Source: an uncultured Gammaproteobacteria bacterium (GTDB lineage: Bacteria; Patescibacteriota; Microgenomatia; JAMCZE01). Taken from it: a DNA stretch of 64,000 bases. The position numbers were made by a program, and so were the translations under genes. The number at the start of each line of letters is the position of its first letter. The stretch's first letter is position 1. Below are positions 52,292 to 64,000 of this stretch, one piece after another. The notes beneath the pieces were generated by a model. That model was not told the DNA's origin, did no database searches, and worked only from the letters and a program-made list of their open reading frames with translations. Location: the NCBI GenBank assembly GCA_964576435.1, contig CAZNUP010000001.1, forward strand, positions 98,345-162,344. The letters run 5' to 3'.

Positions 52292-52552
52292 ATGATTATG
52301 ATGAGAAGAGGTCGACCAATCATGGCAGCTGCCGCAACAGCATCCATGGTAAGTACTGCACGCACAAATAGAGCAGTCAGAAAAAATATCGAAGGCCAAA
52401 ATGTCGCTCAAGATGCTCAAACGCAACAACAAGCAGCACCTGCTCAAGACGACACCACAGCTGAATTGGAAAAGTTGAAAGGCCTTTTGGATCAAGGTTT
52501 GATTTCCCAATCCGACTACGATGCCAAAAAGAAACAACTTTTAGGTCTTTAA
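52292..52552 (+). CDS. SHOCT-domain small protein
   Basis: The C-terminal 'ELEKLKGLLDQGLISQSDYDAKKKQLLGL' is the SHOCT motif. Confidence 0.5.
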   Translation: MIMMRRGRPIMAAAATASMVSTARTNRAVRKNIEGQNVAQDAQTQQQAAPAQDDTTAELEKLKGLLDQGLISQSDYDAKKKQLLGL

Positions 52553-52623
52553 TAAGTAGTTATAAAACAAAGCTCTTCTACCAATTGGTGGGTAAGGAGC
52601 TTTGTTTAGTTTTAAAGGAGATT

Positions 52624-53298
52624 CTATTTTTTCTTGGGCTGAAGAAATGCAGTTGCTAAAAAACCACTTAATGTTCCGAAAAGTCCAATTCCCACAAGCA
52701 TCACAACCACTCCAATTATTCGTCCCCAATTGGTAACTGGATACCTATCTCCATACCCAACAGTTGTAATAGTTACGATTATCCACCACAAAGCATCTGA
52801 TGGAGTCTTAATATTAGCTGCTGATGAAAAAGACTCTACATGTAAAATCAATATTCCTCCAAATTCCAAAACCAAAATAGCGAGGAAAAAAATTGTCAAA
52901 AGAGCACTGCTTCCTCTATTTGCTAAAAATTCCAAGACCAATCTTTTTGTGTGATATTTCCTCATAATTCGGACTGCCCGTAGTAGTCTAAAAAATAAAA
53001 GAATCTTAAGTTCGGGGAAGGGTAAACTTGCCAATAGGTCCGCCCATCCATATCTGTGAATAAAGTATTCTTTTTTTGTTTTGTTACCAAAAAATCGTAT
53101 CGAGAAGTCAGCCAGGAAAATTAAATCAAACACCACATTCATTATCACAACGACCCCAGCAATATCCTCTGACTTAACAAAATATAGAAGAAATACATTA
53201 ATAACAGACAATATCGATAAAGCAGCTATAAAAAGCTCGTAAGTTATTGAGCCAATTTGGTCGGGAGATTTGCTTTCTTTTTTATTTTTTACTGCCAT
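52624..53298 (-). CDS. Potassium channel (pore-loop with TVGYG selectivity filter), 4-6 TM
   Basis: 'ALWWIIVTITTVGYGDRYPVT' is the canonical K+ selectivity filter. Confidence 0.8.
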   Translation of the reverse strand: MAVKNKKESKSPDQIGSITYELFIAALSILSVINVFLLYFVKSEDIAGVVVIMNVVFDLIFLADFSIRFFGNKTKKEYFIHRYGWADLLASLPFPELKILLFFRLLRAVRIMRKYHTKRLVLEFLANRGSSALLTIFFLAILVLEFGGILILHVESFSSAANIKTPSDALWWIIVTITTVGYGDRYPVTNWGRIIGVVVMLVGIGLFGTLSGFLATAFLQPKKK

Positions 53299-53354
53299 TA
53301 CAATTTATTTTTAGGCAGTGCGTGCTATTTTAGCACGTTTTTAAGGGTGTGGGG

Positions 53355-53792
53355 CTACAAAGCAAACAAAATGACACTCATTACAAGAAGACTAACTAAG
53401 TAGTAGCCAGTATCGATTGCAAGAAGACTCCAAGGTTTTTTCTCAACATTAAATAGAAACTTTGAAAATGCGTACATCGCAATAAATCCAATCCATGCCC
53501 AAACAGCCGTTTTCATTGCAATAAAGAGTGTTAAATACCCAGGTGCTGCATACCAAATAAAGTGAGCAAGGACATAGGCCATAACTAGCGATGAAACAAA
53601 CATTAACCCATAAGCTTTTGGCATCTCTTTCTTAGTAGTCTCCTCCTTTTCTTTAGTAAGTCCAACCATCTTCGACCATTTCTTGCCAAATAGGGGACCA
53701 TACCATAAATATCCAAGGATCATAGCAGCTACCCCACAAAGAAGAATTGCAAAATAGTTAATTGGTACCATGAAGAAGTTTCCAAGTTCCAT
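53355..53792 (-). CDS. DUF1761-family membrane protein
   Basis: 'GYLWYGPLFGKKW' is typical of DUF1761. Four TM helices. Confidence 0.5.
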   Translation of the reverse strand: MELGNFFMVPINYFAILLCGVAAMILGYLWYGPLFGKKWSKMVGLTKEKEETTKKEMPKAYGLMFVSSLVMAYVLAHFIWYAAPGYLTLFIAMKTAVWAWIGFIAMYAFSKFLFNVEKKPWSLLAIDTGYYLVSLLVMSVILFAL

Positions 53793-53811
53793 ATAATTTA
53801 TATTAGTCTAA

Positions 53812-54825
53812 TTAGTTTCCTTTAATCAAGCTCCAAGTTGCATATTCTTCTCGCTTAAGGTCAAACCTGTCTTTAGGCTGTCTTTTAAGTGAGTGGGCAA
53901 AGTGAGGTATTAGTTCTTTCCCTTCATAGCTTTTTATTATTTTTGGATGAATGTAATAAGTCCTGCAAACCGTTTTTGTATTTCCAAGAAGCTTCGAGAC
54001 TTCAGATACAGCGTCAATTATGTTCTTTTTTATCCCTTTAGCATCCTCTCCGTTACCCTTGGTGTAAAGTGATTCACCAGCCATAACGCTTCCTCCCCAG
54101 GTTCTAAAATCTTTTGCTGAAAAATCAGACCCCGCATAGGTTTGTAAGTATTCATTTACATCAGCTGAGTCAATTGTTTGTGGTTGTTTATTCTCATCTA
54201 TATATTGGAAAAGTTCATACCCAGGCAAATCAATACATTTCTTAACTGTTTTAGCTACAGTTGGGTGTGTTACTCCAAGTTCATGATCGACTCCACTTTT
54301 CCCCCTAAAGCTAAATGTCACTTTGTTTCCCACAACATCAACGTGTTTGTTTCTCATTGTGGTAAGTCCATAAGATTGATTCTCTTCAGCATAAACTTTA
54401 TTCCCAACTCTTATAAATGTATGTTCAAGAAGCCACACGACAGTAGCAACTATCCTATTTCTAGTTAAAGTTGGGTCTTTCATGTGTCCATCAACTGTTT
54501 TTCTGAGTTCTGGGAGTGCTTCACCAAAACTCACCATCTGTTCAAACTTGTGCTTCTGGTTGTGTTTAACTAGGTCTGGGTGATAAATATATTGTTTCCG
54601 CCTCTTTGCGTCGGTTCCAATAACTTGAATATAAGATAGTGGGTCAGATGCAATTAAAACTTCAGTCCAAGCGGGTGGAATTGCAAACTCTAAAATTCTT
54701 TCTCTATCTTTTTCAGAAACGACTTTTCCGTCTTCATCTACAAAACTGAAGCTATCACCGTTTTTTCTGCGCCTTAAATTTAAGTTTAAATTTTTAGGAT
54801 AGTGAAGTGTCATTGTCCTTCCCAA
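53812..54825 (-). CDS. Type IB DNA topoisomerase (poxvirus/eukaryote-like TopIB)
   Basis: 'FRGKSGVDHE', 'DFSAKDFRTWGGSV' and the C-terminal 'TVCRTYYIHPKII' (catalytic Tyr in an SKxxY-like context) match the bacterial TopIB layout of about 330 aa. Confidence 0.7.
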   Translation of the reverse strand: MGRTMTLHYPKNLNLNLRRRKNGDSFSFVDEDGKVVSEKDRERILEFAIPPAWTEVLIASDPLSYIQVIGTDAKRRKQYIYHPDLVKHNQKHKFEQMVSFGEALPELRKTVDGHMKDPTLTRNRIVATVVWLLEHTFIRVGNKVYAEENQSYGLTTMRNKHVDVVGNKVTFSFRGKSGVDHELGVTHPTVAKTVKKCIDLPGYELFQYIDENKQPQTIDSADVNEYLQTYAGSDFSAKDFRTWGGSVMAGESLYTKGNGEDAKGIKKNIIDAVSEVSKLLGNTKTVCRTYYIHPKIIKSYEGKELIPHFAHSLKRQPKDRFDLKREEYATWSLIKGN

Positions 54826-55169
54826 GGGGTCATAAGCTGGAAATAGTTTCCATCAGGATCAGAAAGAGTTGCAATCCAAGCACCTTGCATTTCATAAGGT
54901 TCTTTAACTGAAATTGCACCTGCTTTAACCATTCTGTCAAACTCTTCTTTAACTTCTTTTGTTTCAAAATTAAACATCATTCGTGCTGGTTCTTTTGATT
55001 GCCCTTTAACTTCTGAATGTGGACCCACTGAGAAAAATGTGTCTCCCGCTTTCCATCCTGTCCAATCTCCATCTTGCATCATAGGTTCCATGCCAAGGAC
55101 TTTTGTATAAAACTCTGATAACACTTTTGGCTGACTTGACCCGATCATTATTGAATTTAAATTAATCAT
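54810..55169 (-). CDS. VOC/glyoxalase-family protein
   Basis: About 120 aa with paired beta-alpha-beta-beta-beta modules. 'DPDGNYFQL' is a typical VOC C-terminal motif. Confidence 0.65.
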   Translation of the reverse strand: MINLNSIMIGSSQPKVLSEFYTKVLGMEPMMQDGDWTGWKAGDTFFSVGPHSEVKGQSKEPARMMFNFETKEVKEEFDRMVKAGAISVKEPYEMQGAWIATLSDPDGNYFQLMTPWEGQ

Positions 55170-55186
55170 ATAATTTTATTCTATCA

Positions 55187-55591
55187 CTACTTTGGTGCTT
55201 TAGTTTCATCAATATAAGTTAGTTCCCAAATATGTCCATCGATATCAGAGATACTTTGTGAATACATCCATCCATAATCATCAACTGGCCTGTTTATTTT
55301 TCCACCATTTTCGACTGCAAGTTTACTAAGTTCATCAACTTTTTCTTTACTATCAAATGAAATGGCATTAATAACTTCAACGTTTTGAAAACTATCAACA
55401 ATATTTTTATTTGTAAAAGTTTTAAAAAACTCTTCTTTGAGAAGCATTGCAAAGATATTGTCACCTAAAGTCAAAGCGGCTGCCTTCTCATCAGTAAATG
55501 TCTTATTAAAGCTAAACCCAAGATTCGTCCAAAAGTTCATTGTTTTAGAAAGATCTTTAACAGGAAGATTAACAAATATTTGCTTAACCAT
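55187..55591 (-). CDS. VOC/glyoxalase-family protein
   Basis: 'DIDGHIWEL' is a VOC-type C-terminal motif. Size about 134 aa. Confidence 0.55.
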   Translation of the reverse strand: MVKQIFVNLPVKDLSKTMNFWTNLGFSFNKTFTDEKAAALTLGDNIFAMLLKEEFFKTFTNKNIVDSFQNVEVINAISFDSKEKVDELSKLAVENGGKINRPVDDYGWMYSQSISDIDGHIWELTYIDETKAPK

Positions 55592-55807
55592 AGATATATT
55601 TTAACAACTTGATAAAATATTTTCTATACAAAAGATATTCAATTTTTGTGGTTTGACACCCATTTCTACTAGAAGTAACTATTTGTACGTTTATAAATCC
55701 AAGTTTAAAAAAATAAATCTCTAGGTTTGAATTGGCTATATTTTAATTTGTTGGAGCTATTCCCTAGGAGTAGTGCCCCATATTTAGCCGTAAGCTAAAT
55801 TTAGATA

Positions 55808-56209
55808 TTATCCACGTGGATTTGGTTGAAGTGTTCCCACTCTATTTCCTTCAGAATCTTCAATTGCGACGTATTTTCCAATTCCCGGAATATCCATAGG
55901 TTCTCCCAAGATTTTTCCTCCCGCCTTCTTTACCATTTCCATGCTGGTGTTAATGTCTTCAACTGCAATCACAACTGAGGGCATTTGAAATCCAGGTTTA
56001 TCGGCTTTTGGAAAAAACCCACCATTAATTGTTCCAGGAGTTTTAACCATTCCGTTCTCGTCAGTATCAGAGGTCTGGGCCATTACATATCCGCCGTATT
56101 CTTCACCAGCAATTTGCATTTTCCATCCAAACGCTTCCTCATAAAATTTAACTACTCGAGCTTTGTCAGACGCTGGCATCTCAAAATGAACTACTGGGTT
56201 TGGTTTCAT
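55808..56209 (-). CDS. VOC/glyoxalase-family protein
   Basis: 'HFEMPASDKARVVKFYEEAFGW' and 'DSEGNRVGT' are typical of VOC. Confidence 0.65.
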   Translation of the reverse strand: MKPNPVVHFEMPASDKARVVKFYEEAFGWKMQIAGEEYGGYVMAQTSDTDENGMVKTPGTINGGFFPKADKPGFQMPSVVIAVEDINTSMEMVKKAGGKILGEPMDIPGIGKYVAIEDSEGNRVGTLQPNPRG

Positions 56210-56223
56210 ATACCTATTTTAAC

Positions 56224-56601
56224 TTACCCTTTGATAGTTTTTAAACCATCAAGGTCTTCGTTTAATTTAGCTTGTCCCTTAATCAATTTTTTTATTAGAT
56301 CAGTTTGCAATTTCTCACTAAGAGGCAGTTGAATTGTGCCTTTGGTCATTTCATATCCCTTAAGTTCCTTTTCAAACTCTTTTCTAACCGGTTCTTTTAT
56401 TCCATAAAGTCCAATATGTTTTTCCCAAAAAGCAAAATAGGCAAGCCACCCATGATATTTATAAGCAGGCATTGAATAACTAATTCTCTCCTCAGCACTG
56501 GGGACCACGTCCTTTATAATTTTCCTAATTTCTTGAAGTCTTCCTTGGATTTCTTTTGGAGCCAAAGCTATGTATTGGTCAACATTTTTGAAGGAATTCA
56601 T
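56224..56601 (-). CDS. DUF1801 (YdhG-like) family protein
   Basis: 'YSMPAYKYHGWLAYFAFWEKHIGLY' resembles the DUF1801 core. Confidence 0.5.
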   Translation of the reverse strand: MNSFKNVDQYIALAPKEIQGRLQEIRKIIKDVVPSAEERISYSMPAYKYHGWLAYFAFWEKHIGLYGIKEPVRKEFEKELKGYEMTKGTIQLPLSEKLQTDLIKKLIKGQAKLNEDLDGLKTIKG

Positions 56602-56622
56602 CTGTGGAGTATATCAAAAAAC

Positions 56623-56660
56623 AAAAAACTCCGAGCACCCTTTGTAACTCGGAGTTTTCT
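56623..56660 (-). terminator. Rho-independent terminator downstream of the cold-shock gene (stem CTCCGAG/CTCGGAG flanked by A- and T-tracts)
   Basis: 'aaaaaaCTCCGAGcaccctttgtaaCTCGGAGttttct' read directly. Confidence 0.65.
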
Positions 56661-56670
56661 TAAATAAGCC

Positions 56671-56868
56671 TTAAGCTAATTTAACGTTTTTAGCACTTGG
56701 CCCTTTTTCTCCGTCAACGACGTCGAAAGTAACGGCTTGGCCAACTTGCAAAGCTTCAAAAGTAACACCGACCAAATCTTTCGAATGAAAGAAAAGATCT
56801 TTTGTTTCGCCTTCTCTGGCGATAAATCCAAAACCTCGATCTGTTTTGGTTTTGATTGTCCCTGTCAT
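56671..56868 (-). CDS. Cold-shock protein (CspA family)
   Basis: 'GTIKTKTDRGFGFIAREGETKDLFFH' contains the RNP1/RNP2 motifs. Confidence 0.85.
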   Translation of the reverse strand: MTGTIKTKTDRGFGFIAREGETKDLFFHSKDLVGVTFEALQVGQAVTFDVVDGEKGPSAKNVKLA

Positions 56869-56963
56869 ATATTTTTTTAGAATAATTAATTAACCCTGGA
56901 CTATGCGAGCAGTATATCACACTCTTGCTACTCTTACCTTACCTGTCCTGTTAAAATGAAAAT

Positions 56964-57650
56964 ATGGTCGAAAGAATGGTCAAAATTGGAGGACTCTTTT
57001 CACTTTTCGGGGGTATCGCTTTTGTGGGAGTGTTCACATACCTGGCAATTAATTTTCATTATCCAGATATTTTGGATGGTGACGCCTATCATGTATTACC
57101 CAAGGTTATTGCGGGCGGCCAAGAAATGCGTACAGTCTGGGCTATCTACGCTTTTCTCCCATTAACTCTCATCTTTGCAGCACTTGGAACCTATTCGTAT
57201 TTAAAAGATAAGTTTAACTCTCTAGCTGTAGCTGGATTAGTTTTTGCCACAATCTCTGCATTTGCAAATATGCTGGGCCTCCTGCGCTGGCCAAGTATCA
57301 ATTGGGTATTAGCGGAAAAATTTGTAACAGCAACAACTAGTCAAAAAGAAATTATTAATGCAGTTTTCCTAGGTCTAAATTCTTATCTAGGAAACTACAT
57401 TGGCGAATTCCTAGGAGAGTTAACTCTCAATATTTGGTTTCTAACAATTGGACTCGCTCTTATAACAATAAAAGGTAAATTAAAATATCTTGGCTACCTC
57501 GCTTTATTAACAGCTATTCTTGGTTTCATTGGTGGATTCAGAAATGTAACTGGAGTTGTAAGTATTGCAGCCGAAATCAACAACTATCTCTTACCACTAT
57601 TCTTAATTGTTCTAGGTGTATTTCTTCTTCAGGTTAAAAAATCTCTTTAA
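56964..57650 (+). CDS. Hypothetical polytopic membrane protein (about 6 TM)
   Basis: Hydrophobicity pattern only. Confidence 0.4.
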   Translation: MVERMVKIGGLFSLFGGIAFVGVFTYLAINFHYPDILDGDAYHVLPKVIAGGQEMRTVWAIYAFLPLTLIFAALGTYSYLKDKFNSLAVAGLVFATISAFANMLGLLRWPSINWVLAEKFVTATTSQKEIINAVFLGLNSYLGNYIGEFLGELTLNIWFLTIGLALITIKGKLKYLGYLALLTAILGFIGGFRNVTGVVSIAAEINNYLLPLFLIVLGVFLLQVKKSL

Positions 57651-57672
57651 GTCTCCCTTATTTTAATAGTTA

Positions 57673-58212
57673 TTAGAAATCTTGAATACTAGTTTTTCCC
57701 TCAATCAAAACTCCTTTGTAAATTGTCGGACTATCAATTTTATGTTTGGATGTATTACTAATCTCGCGCTGATGTTTTAAGTTTAATATCGTCTCCTTTT
57801 GCTTACTAGATACATTCCTCAACAACTTTTCAAGTTTTGCATCAACATCCCCACTTGGTAATTTTTTATCAAACCATATTTCTATTTCCCATTTTCTGCC
57901 TTTAAATTCATGTATGAGGACAATAATAGTACCCTGAGGTCTACCCTCAAGTGGAAATTTAATAAAATCCCCAAATTGATATTTTCGAAATTTCCCTTGA
58001 TTAATAAAATCGTTTAAAGCCTTATGCGAAGCTTGTTCGGGGTCACTAGGTAAAACAGTTATGTCAATGTCCGGTCCCCACATCAAGTCGTAGCTATAAC
58101 TACCACTTAAAATCACCTTTCCATATTTGGAGAGAGTTTCCAAAACATTCCCATAAGCTAAAAGGCTGTCAGCTTCCGCCTTTGTCCTTTGAGAAAATTC
58201 CATTACATCCAT
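57673..58212 (-). CDS. Nucleotidyltransferase-fold protein (pol-beta superfamily), possibly a small-molecule nucleotidyltransferase
   Basis: 'LSGSYSYDLMWGPDIDITVL' fits [GS]-x9-13-D-x-[DE] of minimal nucleotidyltransferases. Confidence 0.45.
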   Translation of the reverse strand: MDVMEFSQRTKAEADSLLAYGNVLETLSKYGKVILSGSYSYDLMWGPDIDITVLPSDPEQASHKALNDFINQGKFRKYQFGDFIKFPLEGRPQGTIIVLIHEFKGRKWEIEIWFDKKLPSGDVDAKLEKLLRNVSSKQKETILNLKHQREISNTSKHKIDSPTIYKGVLIEGKTSIQDF

Positions 58213-58313
58213 AAAAGAATAATATCATAGGTTCAAATGACCTATTCGGATGGTGACCATCGTACTGTCTAGCTTTAGAAGAGTCTAAGTCCAAAAAAAG
58301 CAGATACCCCAAC

Positions 58314-58787
58314 TTGGTCACCCAAACAATTTCTAAGAGGACTATAATAAAACAAATTAATAAACAATCATTTTCTATTGGGTTTTTATACCACGCAGAT
58401 TCTGCTCGGTTCCTTCTTCAAAAAGACCATGAAAGTGGGCCTTCCAATTGGAAGCTGATGGGCTCCAAATGTCTTACCAAATTTAGTGCCCAAAGCTTCA
58501 AGAATTTAGTGCAAAAACAGCTAAATCTCGAGATTCAAACACTTTCTATTCACCATATCTATGATTACTACCAACGTGACTTGGGCCGGGACAATTTTGT
58601 CTCGTATGCCGAAGTCGAAAGTTTAAAAGATTTTCCTGAAATATTAAATCAAACATTCGCCTGGTTCACTCTAAAAGAAATCTCTAAACTTTCACTCTCC
58701 CAACAGACCAAACAAGACCTTATTGTTGGTCAAAGGGTGATTGACTCCGATAACAGAAGAAAAACTGGTGAAAGAACAATCGGCTAA
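58314..58787 (+). CDS. Hypothetical protein
   Basis: ORF only. Confidence 0.3.
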   Translation: MVTQTISKRTIIKQINKQSFSIGFLYHADSARFLLQKDHESGPSNWKLMGSKCLTKFSAQSFKNLVQKQLNLEIQTLSIHHIYDYYQRDLGRDNFVSYAEVESLKDFPEILNQTFAWFTLKEISKLSLSQQTKQDLIVGQRVIDSDNRRKTGERTIG

Positions 58788-58808
58788 TCGGGGATTATTA
58801 ATATTTCT

Positions 58809-59309
58809 TTATTCACCAGCCCTTTTAATTGTTTCTAGGTCAAGTTTCTTCATTGGCAAAAAAGCAGCACTAACAGCATCAGCTTTTTGAGGATCTCTCA
58901 TAAGCTCATCCAAAATCCTTGGGGTTATCTGCCACGTGATACCAAATTTGTCTCTACACCATCCGCACTGTTCAGCGGAAGGGTCAGCTGAAAGTTTTTC
59001 CCAAAAGAAATCAATTTCTTCTTGCGTCTCGCACTCAACCATAAAAGATGTAGATCCATTAAGTTTGTACTCACCAAAAGGACCACCATTAAGAAGCATA
59101 AAACTAATTCCATCAAGTTCACACTCAGCAGTCATGATAGAGCCCTCAGGTCTACCAGAAACTTTTTCAGTTGCTTTGGGAACTTTTGTGATATCTCCAA
59201 GTTTTGCTTCATGATTACCAGGAGCTGAATTAAAAGTATCTATGTAGTATTTTGCTGCCTCTTCTCCATTGTTGTTAACAAACCAGATGCATGTAATTAG
59301 TCTACTCAT
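58809..59309 (-). CDS. VOC-superfamily protein of the PhnB/3-demethylubiquinone-9 3-methyltransferase-domain type
   Basis: 'CGWCRDKFGITWQI' and 'CIWFVNNNGEEA' are typical of the PhnB-like family. Confidence 0.6.
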   Translation of the reverse strand: MSRLITCIWFVNNNGEEAAKYYIDTFNSAPGNHEAKLGDITKVPKATEKVSGRPEGSIMTAECELDGISFMLLNGGPFGEYKLNGSTSFMVECETQEEIDFFWEKLSADPSAEQCGWCRDKFGITWQITPRILDELMRDPQKADAVSAAFLPMKKLDLETIKRAGE

Positions 59310-59394
59310 TTAATTATTCTAACATGTCGTGGAAATTTTCATTAGGATCGCTAGTTGGGTGATTTACGAACCTTTCGCATAAATCCAAGTTCTT

Positions 59395-60048
59395 CTAGTC
59401 ATTTCCAATTGTTAATTTGATAATCCCTAGATCCAGCTCCCTAAGAGTTAGTCTTCCGAAGTCCCAAAATCTATAATTAAGTTTTTGCAAGTTCGCAAAC
59501 ATTTTGGATTTAAATCCTTCTATGCCATTGCTTCTCTTTTCTAAATACTTTACCGAATACAATCGGGCACCTCTTTCGACAAGGTGATAGGACTCGGGTG
59601 GTTTTTCTTCCGCAGCTCTCATAAGAGTCCGTTTAAATCTACCTAACTGCCAAAGATGATATATCTCGTGCGCCATAGCTTCTCGTAGTTGATTTTCCGC
59701 ATGCCAGGAAGTTATCGGGTTGTCTAGACTTCGAGCCGTTTGTATCAAAAAGTGTTCTGAAAAAATAATACTTGGACGGTTCTTAAAATTACGAGGTACA
59801 ACAAGATGTGCTTTCACATCATTTTCTTCCATTATTCGTTGTCTCGAAGCCTCTATTTTACAGTTTTCAATCTTTCTTTCTTGAGACACAGACAAATACG
59901 AGTCTGCAATTATGAGTGCAATTTTTTGACGAGTTTCGTCGTTAAACTTCCGGAGTCGTCTATCAATTTGAAGTTGTTTTTTTACCCAAATTTGTTTCTC
60001 CGATAAATCTCTTGCATCCGATTTTATCCATTTTCGTTCCAAATACAT
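59395..60048 (-). CDS. Putative Zn-dependent metallopeptidase-like protein (HExxH)
   Basis: 'AMAHEIYHLWQLGRF' plus a downstream Glu run 'AAEEKPPE' as a possible third ligand. No further family assignment possible. Confidence 0.4.
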   Translation of the reverse strand: MYLERKWIKSDARDLSEKQIWVKKQLQIDRRLRKFNDETRQKIALIIADSYLSVSQERKIENCKIEASRQRIMEENDVKAHLVVPRNFKNRPSIIFSEHFLIQTARSLDNPITSWHAENQLREAMAHEIYHLWQLGRFKRTLMRAAEEKPPESYHLVERGARLYSVKYLEKRSNGIEGFKSKMFANLQKLNYRFWDFGRLTLRELDLGIIKLTIGND

Positions 60049-60157
60049 CTCCTTAGACTTTAGTCGTTTTTAATAAGGACTATTCGCTCCGCCTCATAGA
60101 AGATGAGAGAACTTACTTTCTCAACCAAAAACAACTAGTCCCACTATATATGCCGTC

Positions 60158-60817
60158 TTAATTATTTGAAATCTTCTCTGATATGTAAGCGTATTTCATA
60201 TCGTAGGGGTCGTTCTTCTTATCGTACACATCACTTAGTTTATAAAATTGCATGTACTTGTAGGGGTAACCAAAAAATAATAATCTTTTCCAAAACTTCC
60301 AGTGTGTTCTACCTTTAAAATGACAATAAATTAGTGGGACATATCCATATTCGTCACCTTCTGGGTCAATATACTCTATCCACTCATAAGGAATAATTCC
60401 AACAGGGTAAACATTAAATAGTTTGTTTTTCTTTTCTCCCTTGAAGGTAAGTCTGGAATCTGATTTTTTGTATACTTCTTTTGGCATTTCAGCAAAGAAT
60501 TCAATGCCATCAAATCTAGTTGCCTTAATATCTGCTCGAATGTGTGAGTAGCCAGAGAATCTTTTTTCCTTATTAGAGGGATAGTCTTTGAAATATCTAT
60601 TAATATTAACTAGATAAACCTTTGGACTTAATCCCTTACTATGAATATCGCGTAAAATCTTCTCAGCCTGTTCTTTGAGCTTCTCTCTGTGTTCTAATTT
60701 TGATTTAGTCGACAGTCTTTTTGACAAAAAGAATATATGATAAGCAATAAAGCTTTGTACTATCAAACTTAAAATCCAACCATAATTTGCTTGTATCCAT
60801 TCCATATACATAATCAT
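60158..60817 (-). CDS. Hypothetical N-terminally membrane-anchored Tyr/Lys-rich protein
   Basis: One TM helix ('WILSLIVQSFIAYHIFFL'). Sits between the 945-aa protein gene and the HExxH gene on the same strand. Confidence 0.35.
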   Translation of the reverse strand: MIMYMEWIQANYGWILSLIVQSFIAYHIFFLSKRLSTKSKLEHREKLKEQAEKILRDIHSKGLSPKVYLVNINRYFKDYPSNKEKRFSGYSHIRADIKATRFDGIEFFAEMPKEVYKKSDSRLTFKGEKKNKLFNVYPVGIIPYEWIEYIDPEGDEYGYVPLIYCHFKGRTHWKFWKRLLFFGYPYKYMQFYKLSDVYDKKNDPYDMKYAYISEKISNN

Positions 60818-60946
60818 ATTATAACCCGTGTATACCCGTGTATTTGTCCTTTTAAATATTTATAGAAATACTCGTTTTTAAGGCTAAAAATTGCACTTTT
60901 TTGATAGAACATAAAAATATTATGAGCATTCTCATGGGTCTCTAGC

Positions 60947-63784
60947 CTAATGACGGTCTTTTTCGGCTATTAACTTAAACTTACCTGTTATTGTTCCATC
61001 GCAATTTAAGATATAAGCACCTGAAATTTGTTGAATTTTCCCATTGCCATGTCCGCCACCCAATACCGCTTTTTCCCCAACTAAAGTCCAAACTAATGAC
61101 AATTTATTCTTTTTAAGGAACTCTAAGAATTTCCCCTTTTTAACCGCTAACACTGACTTACCGCCTTCATTTAAGGATAGGTCACCGCAAATTATTTCGC
61201 CTTTATTGTTTACCCAAAAACCATCTTGATTCGCATGGTTGATTTTCATGCCTTCGACTAGCCACTTAGAAGGTAACGAAATGCTAAACGATTCTTCAAC
61301 TGACTTGTCTCTACTTGCGTTTGTGATTGAAAACTCGTCATTAACCTCCATAATGCCATGCGGCATTTTGCTTCTACCCATACGCGCCCATACTTTTGTA
61401 ATCCAACCATCGGGTGGGGTGTCATAGCTGGAATAAATTGCTTGATAAATCTCTGAATCGGGATATTCCCTAAAGAAACATTCTTTTGAACCATCTCGAA
61501 CTTCGGGCATCCACCTTCCATAAAAATTCTGTCTTTCAAACCACTTAAAAAAATCTTCCGCGGTATCTTCCTTTACCAAATACGAGTAAAGCAAGTAAAA
61601 TATATCTCTGCTAGGAAATTCATATTTTTCTTCTTCTGGTGGCGTATCTTGTTCCCATTTAAAGTAAGAATTCAGAATATACCATTCAGTACCGTCGGGG
61701 TCTTTATAAGCCGTGAGTAATAGCGGGTCAGGTAAATCAGCCCTTCTTTTAATCCATTTTTCGCTCGATTCTTTCGCTTTCCAGGCGTCGTATTTGGGTT
61801 GCCATGGGGAATTATCAAAACTTGGCTTGTGTAGTGCTATGCAAGTAGGATCAATATCTCGAATGTTAATTTGCCAAGCACCTTTATAGTTACCACATTC
61901 TGGCGGGTAATCCTTTTCGAGAAACCTAAAGTTATCAGCAAGATAACCAATCAACTCATGTAAGGCAATCCATTGATATTTTTTACCAATTCTTTCTATT
62001 GGGTGGTCATCTCTACCGTTGTCATAATGTGTAGCTCGCATGCCGTCAAAATATCCATGGAGTTTTGGGTCATATAATTCAAATACTCTTTTAATTATCC
62101 AGCGTTTGGCAATTTCAGGGTTAAAGCTTACTCCACGACGAGTTCGTGGGTGTTTTTGAATTTTCTGGTATTGTTTCTTTTGATCTACGCCTAATGAGCG
62201 CCAAAAATCTCGTTTTACAGACTCTATTGCATTCGCGAGCCTTTTTTCCTCTGCGGCTTTTTTCTTTTCTTCTTCTGTTTGATTTTCGCCTTCTTCTTTA
62301 AGATAACTTAATATACTAATAAAAGGCCTGAATTCTTTGATTTGTTTGTACGATTTTCTTTGTGCGCGATTTAAACTTGCTTCAAAACTATTTTCAAGTT
62401 CTTTAAGCGTGGGCGGACAGGGCTCATACATTTTAATAGCCGTCCAATGACCTATGGCAGGTTCAACAACATATCTGAAAAAGTCTGCAATACCATCAAA
62501 GGAGTTCCATATTGCCCTCACGCCTCGATCTTCATAAGACGCTTTATCCCAACTGAAAGCCTTCGGTTCAAATTTATCTTCTAAGTCCTTCATTGTGGGT
62601 AGTCTTTTAGGCCATTTAGTGTTTTGAATAGAACTTACTTTTGTTAGATCAGGTATGACATAAGCCTTTTGTTTTGCCAATAAATCGAGTATGCACTTTG
62701 CGTAATCTCTAATAAGGATATGTGACACAGACTTTTTTGCCAAAAAGACACTTTCATAGATTACTTTTCCCATTTTTGGTAAAGAAGGGTCTTTATAATG
62801 ATTCAAACGTAAAACAACACCGTATGTCACGGCATACAATCTCTCTAAAATATAGGGGTCATCTACACCGCTAAATATGTTATTAAGTTCAAGTAGTTCT
62901 TCTGGTGAATTATCTAAAAGAATTACTAATGCTTTAGTCGATTTGTCTCGAATCGAACGGTTTGACGTTGCAAGAAACCAAGTTAATATTATCCCCATTA
63001 ATAACTTAGATTGACTAGAAATAGCTTTGTTAAAGCTTGCAGATAGTACCCAATGCAATAATCTATCGACAGAACCGTTGTTCCCGTAGTTGTAATGAAG
63101 GAAAGTCGAAGACCATAGGTTATCCCTTGAAGCCATTCCTAGGTTCATCAAGTAACTATGTAGCTTTAGCGCGTTGAACGGGTGGTCTGGCACACCAGCC
63201 ACGTTTAGAACAGTAGAAAAGAACTTAGAGTGACCTTCGTCGAAGGGTAGAACCAATCTGTTGATTATATTAATCGTCTTTACAGGCCGTCCTTTACTAT
63301 TCAGGTAAAAGGCATCGGGCTTACGCCAAATAATGCTTTCCAAAAAAGGTTCTTCAAGAATCTGTTGAGCCCATGGTGCCAAATCAATTAATTCTTCGTT
63401 CAGCCATTCAGGGATTTGAATTGATAACGCATTCATTACCCCTTTGAAAGAATAGTCATAAAAATGTCTGCCTATCGTTCCTGTTTTTCTTAATGCCTTT
63501 TTTATATTATTTTTAGCACCTGCTTCTCCAAATTTATTCTTATCTGCGTACTTGTTCATTAGGTAGCGAGAAATTAAATGGTCGCTAAATCTTTGGTAGG
63601 TAAATCTGTAATCAAACCCTGTTCTATTGCCTTTTTTTCCATAATGAGGAACTCTAATAAGTAAATGATTTTTCTCCAAACTAGAAGTAAGTAATACAAA
63701 GTCGACGCCTGGCAATTCTTTAGCTAAGAACTTTTTAAATTGTCCTTCGCTAATCTTATCTTTATTCCCCCTACCATTTACCAT
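60947..63784 (-). CDS. Large (945 aa) Trp-rich hypothetical protein, complete ORF; unassigned
   Basis: An in-frame stop 58 codons upstream of the ATG, with no alternative start, shows the ORF is complete. The product is soluble, with no TM helix and no Walker A. It has more than 20 Trp and a C-terminal Gly-rich 'GGGHGNGK'. No family recognised by eye. Confidence 0.5.
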   Translation of the reverse strand: MVNGRGNKDKISEGQFKKFLAKELPGVDFVLLTSSLEKNHLLIRVPHYGKKGNRTGFDYRFTYQRFSDHLISRYLMNKYADKNKFGEAGAKNNIKKALRKTGTIGRHFYDYSFKGVMNALSIQIPEWLNEELIDLAPWAQQILEEPFLESIIWRKPDAFYLNSKGRPVKTINIINRLVLPFDEGHSKFFSTVLNVAGVPDHPFNALKLHSYLMNLGMASRDNLWSSTFLHYNYGNNGSVDRLLHWVLSASFNKAISSQSKLLMGIILTWFLATSNRSIRDKSTKALVILLDNSPEELLELNNIFSGVDDPYILERLYAVTYGVVLRLNHYKDPSLPKMGKVIYESVFLAKKSVSHILIRDYAKCILDLLAKQKAYVIPDLTKVSSIQNTKWPKRLPTMKDLEDKFEPKAFSWDKASYEDRGVRAIWNSFDGIADFFRYVVEPAIGHWTAIKMYEPCPPTLKELENSFEASLNRAQRKSYKQIKEFRPFISILSYLKEEGENQTEEEKKKAAEEKRLANAIESVKRDFWRSLGVDQKKQYQKIQKHPRTRRGVSFNPEIAKRWIIKRVFELYDPKLHGYFDGMRATHYDNGRDDHPIERIGKKYQWIALHELIGYLADNFRFLEKDYPPECGNYKGAWQINIRDIDPTCIALHKPSFDNSPWQPKYDAWKAKESSEKWIKRRADLPDPLLLTAYKDPDGTEWYILNSYFKWEQDTPPEEEKYEFPSRDIFYLLYSYLVKEDTAEDFFKWFERQNFYGRWMPEVRDGSKECFFREYPDSEIYQAIYSSYDTPPDGWITKVWARMGRSKMPHGIMEVNDEFSITNASRDKSVEESFSISLPSKWLVEGMKINHANQDGFWVNNKGEIICGDLSLNEGGKSVLAVKKGKFLEFLKKNKLSLVWTLVGEKAVLGGGHGNGKIQQISGAYILNCDGTITGKFKLIAEKDRH

Positions 63785-64000
63785 GCCTTCAGCCAGAGGT
63801 TTTATTAACTTAACCCATACGTCCCCCGCTGAACCGATTTTAAATTCTTTACCAACGTTTTCAGAAACACCTTTAATAAAATCTTCAAAAATTGACGTTG
63901 AACCTTCATGTCCTCTAAAGAGTTGCTTGCCTTTCTTCTTAGCTCGTTTTTGTCGTGATTTACAAAAAAGTAATAAGAAAAGGGGGACGGAAAATTCGGG

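Follow-up and report, generated by a model that had tools for sequence, protein, structure and literature searches.

A large open reading frame at the window edge is very probably the 3' two-thirds of an effector-less Avs2 gene with two unrelated small neighbours

The stretch of DNA analysed here (hereafter the window) is 64,000 nucleotides long, and close to its end lie three minus-strand open reading frames of 945, 219 and 217 amino acids, separated by gaps of 129 and 109 nt (Table 1). An initial annotation, made from the sequence by eye, proposed that they form a three-gene module. The three frames are real, and several of the features described for them were seen again in our analysis: the 945-aa piece contains more than 20 Trp (26 were counted) and the Gly-rich GGGHGNGK near its C-terminus, the 219-aa protein is a single-pass membrane protein with one hydrophobic segment, and the 217-aa protein carries an HExxH motif with downstream Glu residues (E151 and E157) that are conserved in its sole homologue.

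Table 1. Features of the locus, with positions in the window
Feature	Position	Strand	Remark
Avs2 3' part (codons 349-1365 and stop)	60947..64000	(-)	Cut by the window edge
945-aa ORF from first ATG	60947-63784	(-)	Truncated piece of the Avs2 gene
Avs2 coding sequence, aa 349-420	63785..64000	(-)	Translates without a stop; aligns with EcAvs2 from residue 505
Avs2 C-terminal beta-rich sensor region, aa 1062-1357	60974..61861	(-)	Aligns with EcAvs2 1184-1479
Gly-rich GGGHGNGK, in the Avs2 C-terminal sensor region	61037-61060	(-)	
219-aa membrane-anchored protein with cytoplasmic beta-rich domain	60158..60817	(-)	Family unnamed, horizontally spread
TM of the 219-aa protein	aa 13-31, nt 60725-60781	(-)	Single hydrophobic segment
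217-aa near-orphan HExxH protein	59395..60048	(-)	Zincin-like motif
HEIYH of the 217-aa protein	aa 127-131, nt 59656-59670	(-)	
166-aa PF06983 (3-dmu-9_3-mt / PhnB-like) gene	58809..59309	(-)	Downstream of the HExxH ORF

The 945-aa ORF had been described as complete, with an in-frame upstream stop at 63959-63961, but the ATG at 63784 shares its frame with base 64000 and no stop lies between them; in frame, positions 63961-63959 read AAA, and the TAA occupies 63962-63960, one base out of frame. The sequence from 63785 to 64000, regarded as upstream non-coding DNA with a stop, rather consists of Avs2 codons (aa 349-420). Upstream of the ATG, the Avs2 homology extends as far as the gene's first codon in the window, where PEFSVPLFLLLFCKS is aligned to PEFKNPLFLKLLCEG at residue 505 of PDB 9o4e, the cryo-EM structure of E. 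coli Avs2 (EcAvs2; PMC13601566), and the PADLOC Avs2 score rose from 746.6 to 801 bits once the 63785..64000 coding stretch was added to the 945-aa piece. Even this piece, which was said to match nothing, matched PADLOC Avs2 at E = 1.7e-224. The open frame up to base 64000 matched the PADLOC model PDLC02164 at E = 6.5e-241 (profile positions 513-1498 of 1504), and residues 505-1479 of 9o4e_A matched the window-encoded part at E = 2.6e-103.

The sequence past base 64000 was taken from a public, metagenome-derived contig (L001), which matches 11,539 nt of the window at 100% identity and contains one full gene of 1,365 aa, and from an NCBI protein record that matches exactly (P0244), in which the gene is intact at 1,367 aa. 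Against PDLC02164 the full-length protein scored 1110.9 bits. Against NCBIfam NF041813, the equivalog family HMM for Avs2 with a curated cut-off of 1000 bits, it reached 1037.8 bits and covered profile positions 4-1311 of 1317; the 945-aa piece alone scored 715.3 bits with this HMM, and only its truncation keeps it under the cut-off. On L001, the 348 codons past the end of the window encode the helical extension together with Walker A (GVTGIGKT, aa 186-193) and Walker B (FFIIIDA, aa 258-264), so the reported absence of a P-loop was an artefact of truncation. Matches of the full-length protein to STAND Pfam families (nSTAND6, NACHT and NB-ARC) were sub-threshold; its NTPase region aligns with the EcAvs2 ATPase. 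The sensor parts specific to Avs2 are also present, as seen in continuous alignment with 9o4e_A over residues 169-513 and 505-1479, and aa 1062-1357 matched EcAvs2 residues 1184-1479 at E = 3.1e-29. The impression of helical repeats in the initial annotation fits the TPR-like sensor of Avs2.

Very likely, the large ORF represents the 3' two-thirds of one intact Avs2 (AVAST type 2) gene that continues past the window end, and both downstream genes are unrelated neighbours. The large gene is a described single-gene antiphage system, not an undescribed one, and thus the suggestion of a phage-defence system holds for this gene but neither for the small genes nor for the word "undescribed". A one-base frame slip at the window edge made a textbook defence gene look like a mystery with no P-loop and no known family, and the locus is a cautionary case of an edge-touching ORF taken as complete.

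By alignment, the Avs2 helical extension spans aa 1 to ~175, and the STAND NTPase begins at aa ~176, its first part up to aa ~350 including Walker A and B; the residues after aa ~350 comprise the remaining ATPase subdomains, an alpha-helical TPR-like sensor and, C-terminally, a beta-rich sensor. An N-terminal effector domain was not found in the protein, aa 10 of which corresponds to EcAvs2 aa 169 and to PADLOC profile position 172; there is no room for one upstream of Avs2 either, because the HTH gene there ends only 66 nt before the Avs2 start. The NF041813 model itself has no effector and the short form is common to hundreds of Avs2-named proteins, so that the absence of the effector is the mark of a subtype and no argument against Avs2 membership. 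This effector-less class of ~1,360-1,400 aa comprises hundreds of proteins from many phyla (36-73% identity, 98-100% coverage), and NCBI calls its members from Caldicellulosiruptor, Thermoleophilia and Ratteibacteria "Avs2". The window's Avs2 belongs to a small subclade, in which the relatives are 54-73% identical and all come from metagenomes. As the published tripartite Avs architecture has an effector (PMC13601566), its absence could be taken to mean that the gene is a decaying remnant whose function went with the effector domain; we regard this as extremely improbable, since the ORF is intact at 1,365-1,367 aa, both Walker motifs are intact, and the same length class recurs in so many proteins and phyla, which indicates selection on this architecture. 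The locus thus adds one more member to a large Avs2 group that has sensor and NTPase without effector; the cited Avs2 papers do not account for how these proteins stop phage.

If the window's protein works as EcAvs2 does (PMC13601566), its sensor and helical extension would wrap the ATPase domain of the phage large terminase, the ATP-bound NTPase domains would then tetramerise as in the EcAvs2-terminase complex, and infection would be aborted or blocked. Judged from its sequence, the window's Avs2 may therefore be a sensor of the large terminase. Nine residues have been functionally probed in EcAvs2; five are kept or conservatively replaced in the window's protein (D981, T1128, R1132, E1444, and W1266 replaced by Y) and four are changed (R1130 to N, E1362 to N, E1364 to S and E1462 to Q). 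This partial loss of the probed contact residues counts against terminase sensing by the window's protein.

The Avs2 gene sits on a mobile element. Upstream of it lie genes for an XRE-type HTH control protein, which matches PADLOC capH (5e-14) and Control_protein (2.6e-23), and for DUF5659, together with a replication-initiator-like gene; orthologues of Avs2 adjoin R-M methylases, HinfI, BREX, NERD and AbiE, a context of defence islands and mobile elements.

The proposed module of a large protein, a membrane protein and a metalloprotease failed the co-conservation test in both directions. Neither small gene is present in the neighbourhoods of other Avs2 genes (0/8). The closest Avs2 orthologues (65-69% identity) show five different downstream contexts, one of them with a convergent gene immediately downstream, and no relative of the 219-aa or 217-aa protein lies near them, while distant Avs2 members adjoin BREX and NERD, type IIG R-M and AbiE, or an SMC-like ATPase, with no shared partner. 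In the other direction, none of 107 loci of the 219-aa family (27 genome and 80 metagenome loci) carries Avs2 or a relative of the HExxH protein, about half of the 80 metagenome loci being shorter than 6 kb, so that the absence of Avs2 there is weak evidence; Avs2 is also absent from the sole locus of the HExxH homologue (P0242).

Could the trio nevertheless be a real module, in which the membrane protein, the HExxH protein or both act in trans as effector or accessory once Avs2 oligomerises? The window's Avs2 has no effector domain of its own, which, in this one genome, could leave neighbouring genes a part to play; all three genes lie closely spaced on one strand, with no clear terminator between them; and there are precedents in KpAvs2, which needs Avap1 and Avap2 (PMC11564622), and in VcAvs2, which cleaves an adjacent MBL-fold effector (bioRxiv 10.1101/2025.11.14.688446). 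We think it very unlikely, because the co-occurrence counts above are zero on all sides, the orthologues at 65-69% identity do without such genes, Avs2 has no adaptor segment in common with either small protein, the membrane gene has its companion in the 166-aa gene, and the published trans cases involve Avs2 with a fused protease or nuclease, absent here. A multi-gene Avs2 operon of the KpAvs2/Avap or VcAvs2/MBL kind was rejected for want of co-conserved accessory genes. The 219-aa and 217-aa genes neighbour Avs2 by juxtaposition, and the locus loses its place as the strongest candidate for an undescribed three-gene system, Avs2 being known and its neighbours not being co-conserved with it.

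The 219-aa protein is horizontally mobile and membrane-anchored, and is not an Avs2 partner. Its family has a wide distribution over phyla, with high identity, and Pfam, NCBIfam and PADLOC have no model for it; fold searches gave no informative PDB match, and the family is absent from viral contigs, which is neutral as to a role in defence. The gene travels with the 166-aa PF06983 gene, not with Avs2: the 166-aa gene is 82% identical in protein and 83% in nucleotide sequence to the gene beside a 219-aa homologue in L013, and 80% and 81% identical to that in L015.

Other homologues of the 219-aa gene lie inside R-M operons, between Mod and Res of type III systems (L027, L030, L036 and L037) and between HsdS and HsdR of type I systems (L028, L032 and L033), with spacing of 0-13 nt or overlap; more homologues embedded in type I R-M were found in metagenomes (L067, L080-L082, L085, L097, L098 and L109). 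Serine recombinases adjoin the family's genes in 8 + 17 loci, and at least 10 loci have an XRE HTH directly upstream. A reading complementary to ours is that the 219-aa protein is a component of a separate, undescribed function associated with defence, accompanies R-M, often with an XRE regulator of its own, and only happens to sit next to Avs2 on a defence/mobile island. The embedding in both types of operon, the dominance of R-M families among the neighbours, the recombinases, the upstream HTH and the wide high-identity spread all speak for it, yet only ~30-40% of the loci show R-M genes, the nearest relatives of the window's copy adjoin detox-type or recombinase genes instead of R-M, and PADLOC and fold searches gave no support; we take it as a tentative possibility that falls short of even chances. 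It seems somewhat more doubtful still that this undescribed family is an accessory or stand-alone defence component, wedged into HsdS-X-HsdR and Mod-X-Res arrangements, which here might also serve Avs2. While we keep to the reading that the gene is an unrelated neighbour of Avs2, the R-M-embedded membrane-protein family is the only fresh lead from the locus, and a modest one.

The 217-aa gene is a lineage-restricted ORF between the 219-aa gene and its usual neighbour, the 166-aa gene; L013 has both flanking genes but no such ORF between them. A word-indexed search with the protein returned only itself, and an exhaustive phmmer search gave one more match (P0242, 28% identity, E = 2.2e-4), encoded at a locus with genes for SmpB, a ComF-like protein and GNAT. 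The pair conserves MAHExYHLW in addition to the two Glu residues, and the composition of the 217-aa protein would give ~0.014 HExxH motifs by chance. No peptidase match was obtained in Pfam, NCBIfam, PADLOC or PHROG, hhalign against YgjP-like proteins aligned 17 columns at 8.5% probability, and the AF2 model (pLDDT 40) was too poor for a fold search. The protein is thus a putative metallopeptidase by its motif only.

Compared with known systems, EcAvs2 residues 169-1479 align continuously with aa 10-1357 of the window's protein, through the helical extension, the STAND NTPase, the TPR-like sensor and the C-terminal sensor; the Walker motifs match and several of the contact residues for bridging ATP and terminase are conserved, whereas the window's protein lacks the ~165-aa N-terminal effector found in EcAvs2 and the overall similarity is moderate. 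With the effector-less Avs2 clade (NF041813; PADLOC PDLC02165), whose members are stand-alone genes in defence islands, the window's protein has its length class and full-length coverage in common, although the named effector-less Avs2 proteins are only 36-39% identical to it. In the KpAvs2/Avap operon, too, a pair of small accessory genes follows Avs2 in the same orientation, but there Avs2 is fused to an Mrr-type nuclease, Avap1 belongs to the radical-SAM proteins and the operon has been conserved from genome to genome, whereas the window's small proteins have no such domains and are not co-conserved with Avs2.

In CapH/CapP-type pairs, an XRE HTH protein and an ImmA/IrrE-type HExxH peptidase control defence operons, and here a capH-matching HTH lies just upstream of Avs2 while an HExxH protein stands in the same gene row. 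Such a pair was rejected, because the HExxH protein has no CapP or M78 match, its gene is two genes away from the HTH, and it is absent from the orthologous locus L006, where the HTH is kept. The anticodon nuclease PrrC is encoded by a gene embedded in type I R-M operons. The 219-aa family has no known sequence or fold similarity to the described embedded defence genes, but it takes up a comparable position between hsdS and hsdR, and differs from PrrC-type genes in being membrane-anchored and in lying also between type III mod and res.

The three minus-strand genes were found at the positions given by the initial annotation, separated by 129 and 109 nt in the ORF listing, and the features seen in them by eye were recovered: 26 Trp were counted in the 945-aa piece, a single hydrophobic segment spans aa 13-31 of the 219-aa protein, and HEIYH occupies aa 127-131 of the 217-aa protein. 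Although the largest gene had been taken as a complete 945-aa ORF bounded by an in-frame stop at 63959-63961, its frame runs without a stop for 216 nt (72 codons) from the ATG at 63784 through base 64000, the last of the window; the codon at 63961-63959 is AAA, and a TAA at 63962-63960 lies one base out of frame. The ORF lister starts this ORF at the first ATG despite a frame that stays open up to the window end. Its entry is therefore no proof of completeness, and for window 60947-64000 it reproduces the initial reading of the 945-aa gene as complete. An explicit frame check is called for wherever an ORF begins close to a window end.

The 945-aa piece matched the PADLOC Avs2 (AVAST type 2) profiles at E = 1.7e-224, limited to profile positions 612-1498 of 1504. 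When the translation was extended to the window edge, the start of the match moved to profile position 513 and the score rose, and the alignment with the cryo-EM structure of E. coli Avs2 (EcAvs2, PDB 9o4e) began at the first window codon, with PEFSVPLFLLLFCKS facing PEFKNPLFLKLLCEG at residue 505. A public 14.5-kb contig (L001) is identical to window 52462-64000 (100% identity over 11,539 nt, 0 mismatches) and continues 2,960 nt beyond it; there the gene forms a single 1,365-aa ORF in which Walker A occupies aa 186-193 (GVTGIGKT) and Walker B aa 258-264 (FFIIIDA). A 709,729-nt contig of an NCBI assembly encodes the same protein, longer by two residues at the N-terminus, so that a deposited genome carries the gene in intact form. 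The full-length protein scored 1037.8 bits against the NCBIfam Avs2 equivalog (cut-off 1000; positions 4-1311 of 1317) and 1110.9 bits against PADLOC PDLC02164, while Pfam gave weak STAND matches, as expected. That neither a P-loop nor a recognisable family was noted from the window is therefore an artefact of the truncation: the motifs lie beyond the window end, and the Avs2 matches are strong. Judged by its sequence, NTPase and sensor features, the large gene is an Avs2. Very probably, the locus is a described single-gene antiphage sensor that the window edge truncates, and the two genes after it are unrelated to it.

The predicted domain order is a helical extension, a STAND NTPase, a TPR-like sensor and a C-terminal sensor. 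Residue 10 corresponds to residue 169 of EcAvs2 and, in the main PADLOC profile, to position 172; the ~165-aa effector of EcAvs2 is absent. Nor would an effector fit upstream, where an XRE-type HTH gene stops 66 nt before the Avs2 start codon. One possibility is that the gene is a decay product, but this was ruled out, since nearly all of the best 120 of 530 strong homologues are 1,340-1,410 aa long with 98-100% query coverage; several short forms among these 120 bear the NCBI name Avs2. Although the tripartite description of Avs2 includes the effector, its absence is a trait common to a large named subgroup. Effector-less Avs2 of ~1,360-1,400 aa were numerous across phyla in the homologue list and occurred in defence islands as single genes lacking a recurrent partner (L040-L042). 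The output of such proteins after sensing, for which the cited Avs2 papers offer no explanation, is one residual point of interest.

In EcAvs2, the helical extension, the TPR domain and the beta-rich C-terminal sensor form a pocket for the terminase ATPase domain, and a C4 tetramer of ATP-bound ATPase domains gathers the N-termini; terminase recognition is redundant and shape-driven in the authors' view (PMC13601566). By homology, we infer that the present Avs2 would sense the phage large terminase. Among the nine probed EcAvs2 residues, D981, T1128, R1132 and E1444 are retained in the alignment, W1266 is replaced by Tyr, and R1130, E1362, E1364 and E1462 differ. Such partial retention of contact residues would fit shape-driven recognition but is no proof of terminase sensing here.

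Upstream of the HTH-Avs2 pair, beyond the window end, L001 carries a 124-aa ORF, a DUF5659 gene and an HTH_36 gene that resembles replication initiators and has PHROG matches to replication initiation. Because DUF5659 recurs near its orthologues in L006 and L007, Avs2 appears to be carried by a small mobile element; neither the window nor L001 contains a tRNA integration site. A terminator-like hairpin (GCCCCT-TCTAGT-AGGGGT, then TTTTT) separates the HTH stop from the Avs2 start. Its 3' arm overlaps the likely Shine-Dalgarno (AGGGG) of Avs2, with a TATAAT box just upstream; this hairpin could mediate attenuation or translational control. A small DNA-binding regulator lies directly upstream in every close orthologue and differs in kind (XRE on the same strand, divergent HTH_17, or divergent LexA-like S24 repressor), a hint of convergence in the transcriptional control of this subclade.

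Coordinates of the features compared (L numbers are contigs or loci)
Feature	Location	Remark
Avs2 gene, portion from first ATG	window 60947-63784 (-)	945 aa
Membrane-protein gene	window 60158-60817 (-)	219 aa
HExxH gene	window 59395-60048 (-)	217 aa
PF06983 gene	window 58809-59309 (-)	166 aa
Membrane-protein gene with PF06983 gene	L013:7998-9581; L015:8001-12756	
124-aa ORF, DUF5659 and HTH_36 genes	L001:40-1575	
Hairpin before Avs2	L001:1851-1916	
Regulators upstream of Avs2	L001:1641-1850; L004:5347-5943; L006:5676-5885; L007:5759-5935; L009:1787-1963; L010:5758-5934	
XRE HTH upstream of membrane-protein gene	L043:50-289; L056; L057; L060; L068; L069/L020; L079; L083; L093; L095	
YgjP-like PF01863 gene	L025:2237-2941; L032:8876-9442; L033:10827-11396	two of three loci also embed a membrane-protein gene

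The initial annotation had put forward the large gene and the two small genes as a three-gene module and a candidate undescribed system. We examined co-conservation from the sides of Avs2, the membrane protein and the HExxH protein, and it was lacking from all three. The closest Avs2 orthologues (65-69% identity; L004-L011) occupy five distinct neighbourhoods with differing downstream genes: a 55-aa ORF then an aminotransferase, DUF5677, a convergent methyltransferase, an ArsR/thioredoxin/ArsP set, or a 155-aa ORF. When both small proteins were compared with all six-frame ORFs of these loci, only noise was obtained (best E = 0.18). Three distant effector-less Avs2 adjoin BREX and NERD, type IIG R-M and AbiE, and an SMC-like ATPase, respectively, with no recurrent partner and neither small protein. 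Conversely, a relative of Avs2 or of the HExxH protein was seen in none of 27 reference-genome loci of the membrane protein and none of 80 metagenome loci, the latter with at most 8 kb of flank and about half of the contigs below 6 kb. We also looked for an adaptor (EAD-like) segment common to Avs2 and either small protein and found none. In the loci compared, neither small gene is thus co-conserved with Avs2, an outcome that the initial annotation had itself named as counting against its proposal, and we consider the module very unlikely. A promoter/terminator scan of 58700-61100 gave chance-level results and favours no particular operon structure.

Neither small protein had a significant match in Pfam, NCBIfam, PADLOC or PHROG. 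The membrane protein has 165 homologues (52-80% identity), and its gene is found between Mod and Res in type III loci (L027, L030, L036, L037) and between HsdS and HsdR in type I loci (L028, L032, L033), with spacings of 0-13 nt or overlapping codons; further type I cases occur in metagenomes, and R-M families predominate among 142 neighbouring ORFs in a bulk scan. Large serine recombinases adjoin the gene in many loci, and the family was not found in viral contigs. This unnamed family embedded in restriction-modification operons is the other residual point of interest. In at least 10 loci an XRE HTH lies immediately upstream on the same strand, which suggests a two-gene unit of regulator and membrane protein; their identity to the 69-aa HTH adjacent to the window is only ~31-39%. 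We dropped the idea that insertion of Avs2 had split an ancestral pair of HTH and membrane gene, since the HTH beside the closest membrane-gene relative is 37% identical to ours, a generic XRE similarity.

L013 and L015 belong to two MAGs whose labels name unrelated taxa (Gammaproteobacteria and Levyibacteriota). In both, the membrane-protein gene adjoins a close homologue of the window's 166-aa PF06983 (PhnB-like) gene with 80-82% protein and 81-83% nucleotide identity, while the membrane-protein gene itself is 71% identical in nucleotides to the window copy. The same pairing in both indicates that the membrane gene here belongs with the 166-aa gene and not with Avs2, and the sequences suggest that the two may form a small horizontally transferred cassette. 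The GC content of the membrane-protein gene (31.8% vs 37.9% for the window) suggests import.

Compared with L013 and L015, the HExxH ORF lies between these two genes in this genome only, its position in L013 being taken by a 440-nt spacer. A word-indexed search of 5.8 billion clustered proteins returned the protein itself alone, and exhaustive phmmer over 1.84 billion representatives added one match (28% identity), which sits among SmpB, ComF-like and GNAT genes and keeps MAHExYHLW and two downstream Glu. The protein is a lineage-restricted ORF and could be a small zincin. Its reading as metallopeptidase-like draws on the motif and downstream Glu; no peptidase family was matched in Pfam, NCBIfam, PADLOC or PHROG. 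An AF2 model from 2 sequences was unusable (pLDDT 40). In three type I R-M loci a YgjP-like HExxH metallopeptidase lies directly 3' of hsdR; kinship of the HExxH pair with these peptidases near the membrane-protein family was considered and set aside, the alignment being limited to the motif.

Control of the CapH/CapP kind (HTH plus HExxH peptidase) was entertained because the HTH upstream of Avs2 matches capH at 5e-14, but was rejected because the HExxH protein matches neither CapP nor M78 models, does not adjoin the HTH and is missing from L006, an orthologous locus that retains the HTH. Unlike the Avs2 described here, which has neither feature, KpAvs2 of the KpAvs2/Avap operon (PMC11564622) carries a fused enzyme together with conserved partners, and VcAvs2 of the VcAvs2/MBL protease-effector pair (bioRxiv 10.1101/2025.11.14.688446) likewise combines a fused enzyme with a conserved partner.
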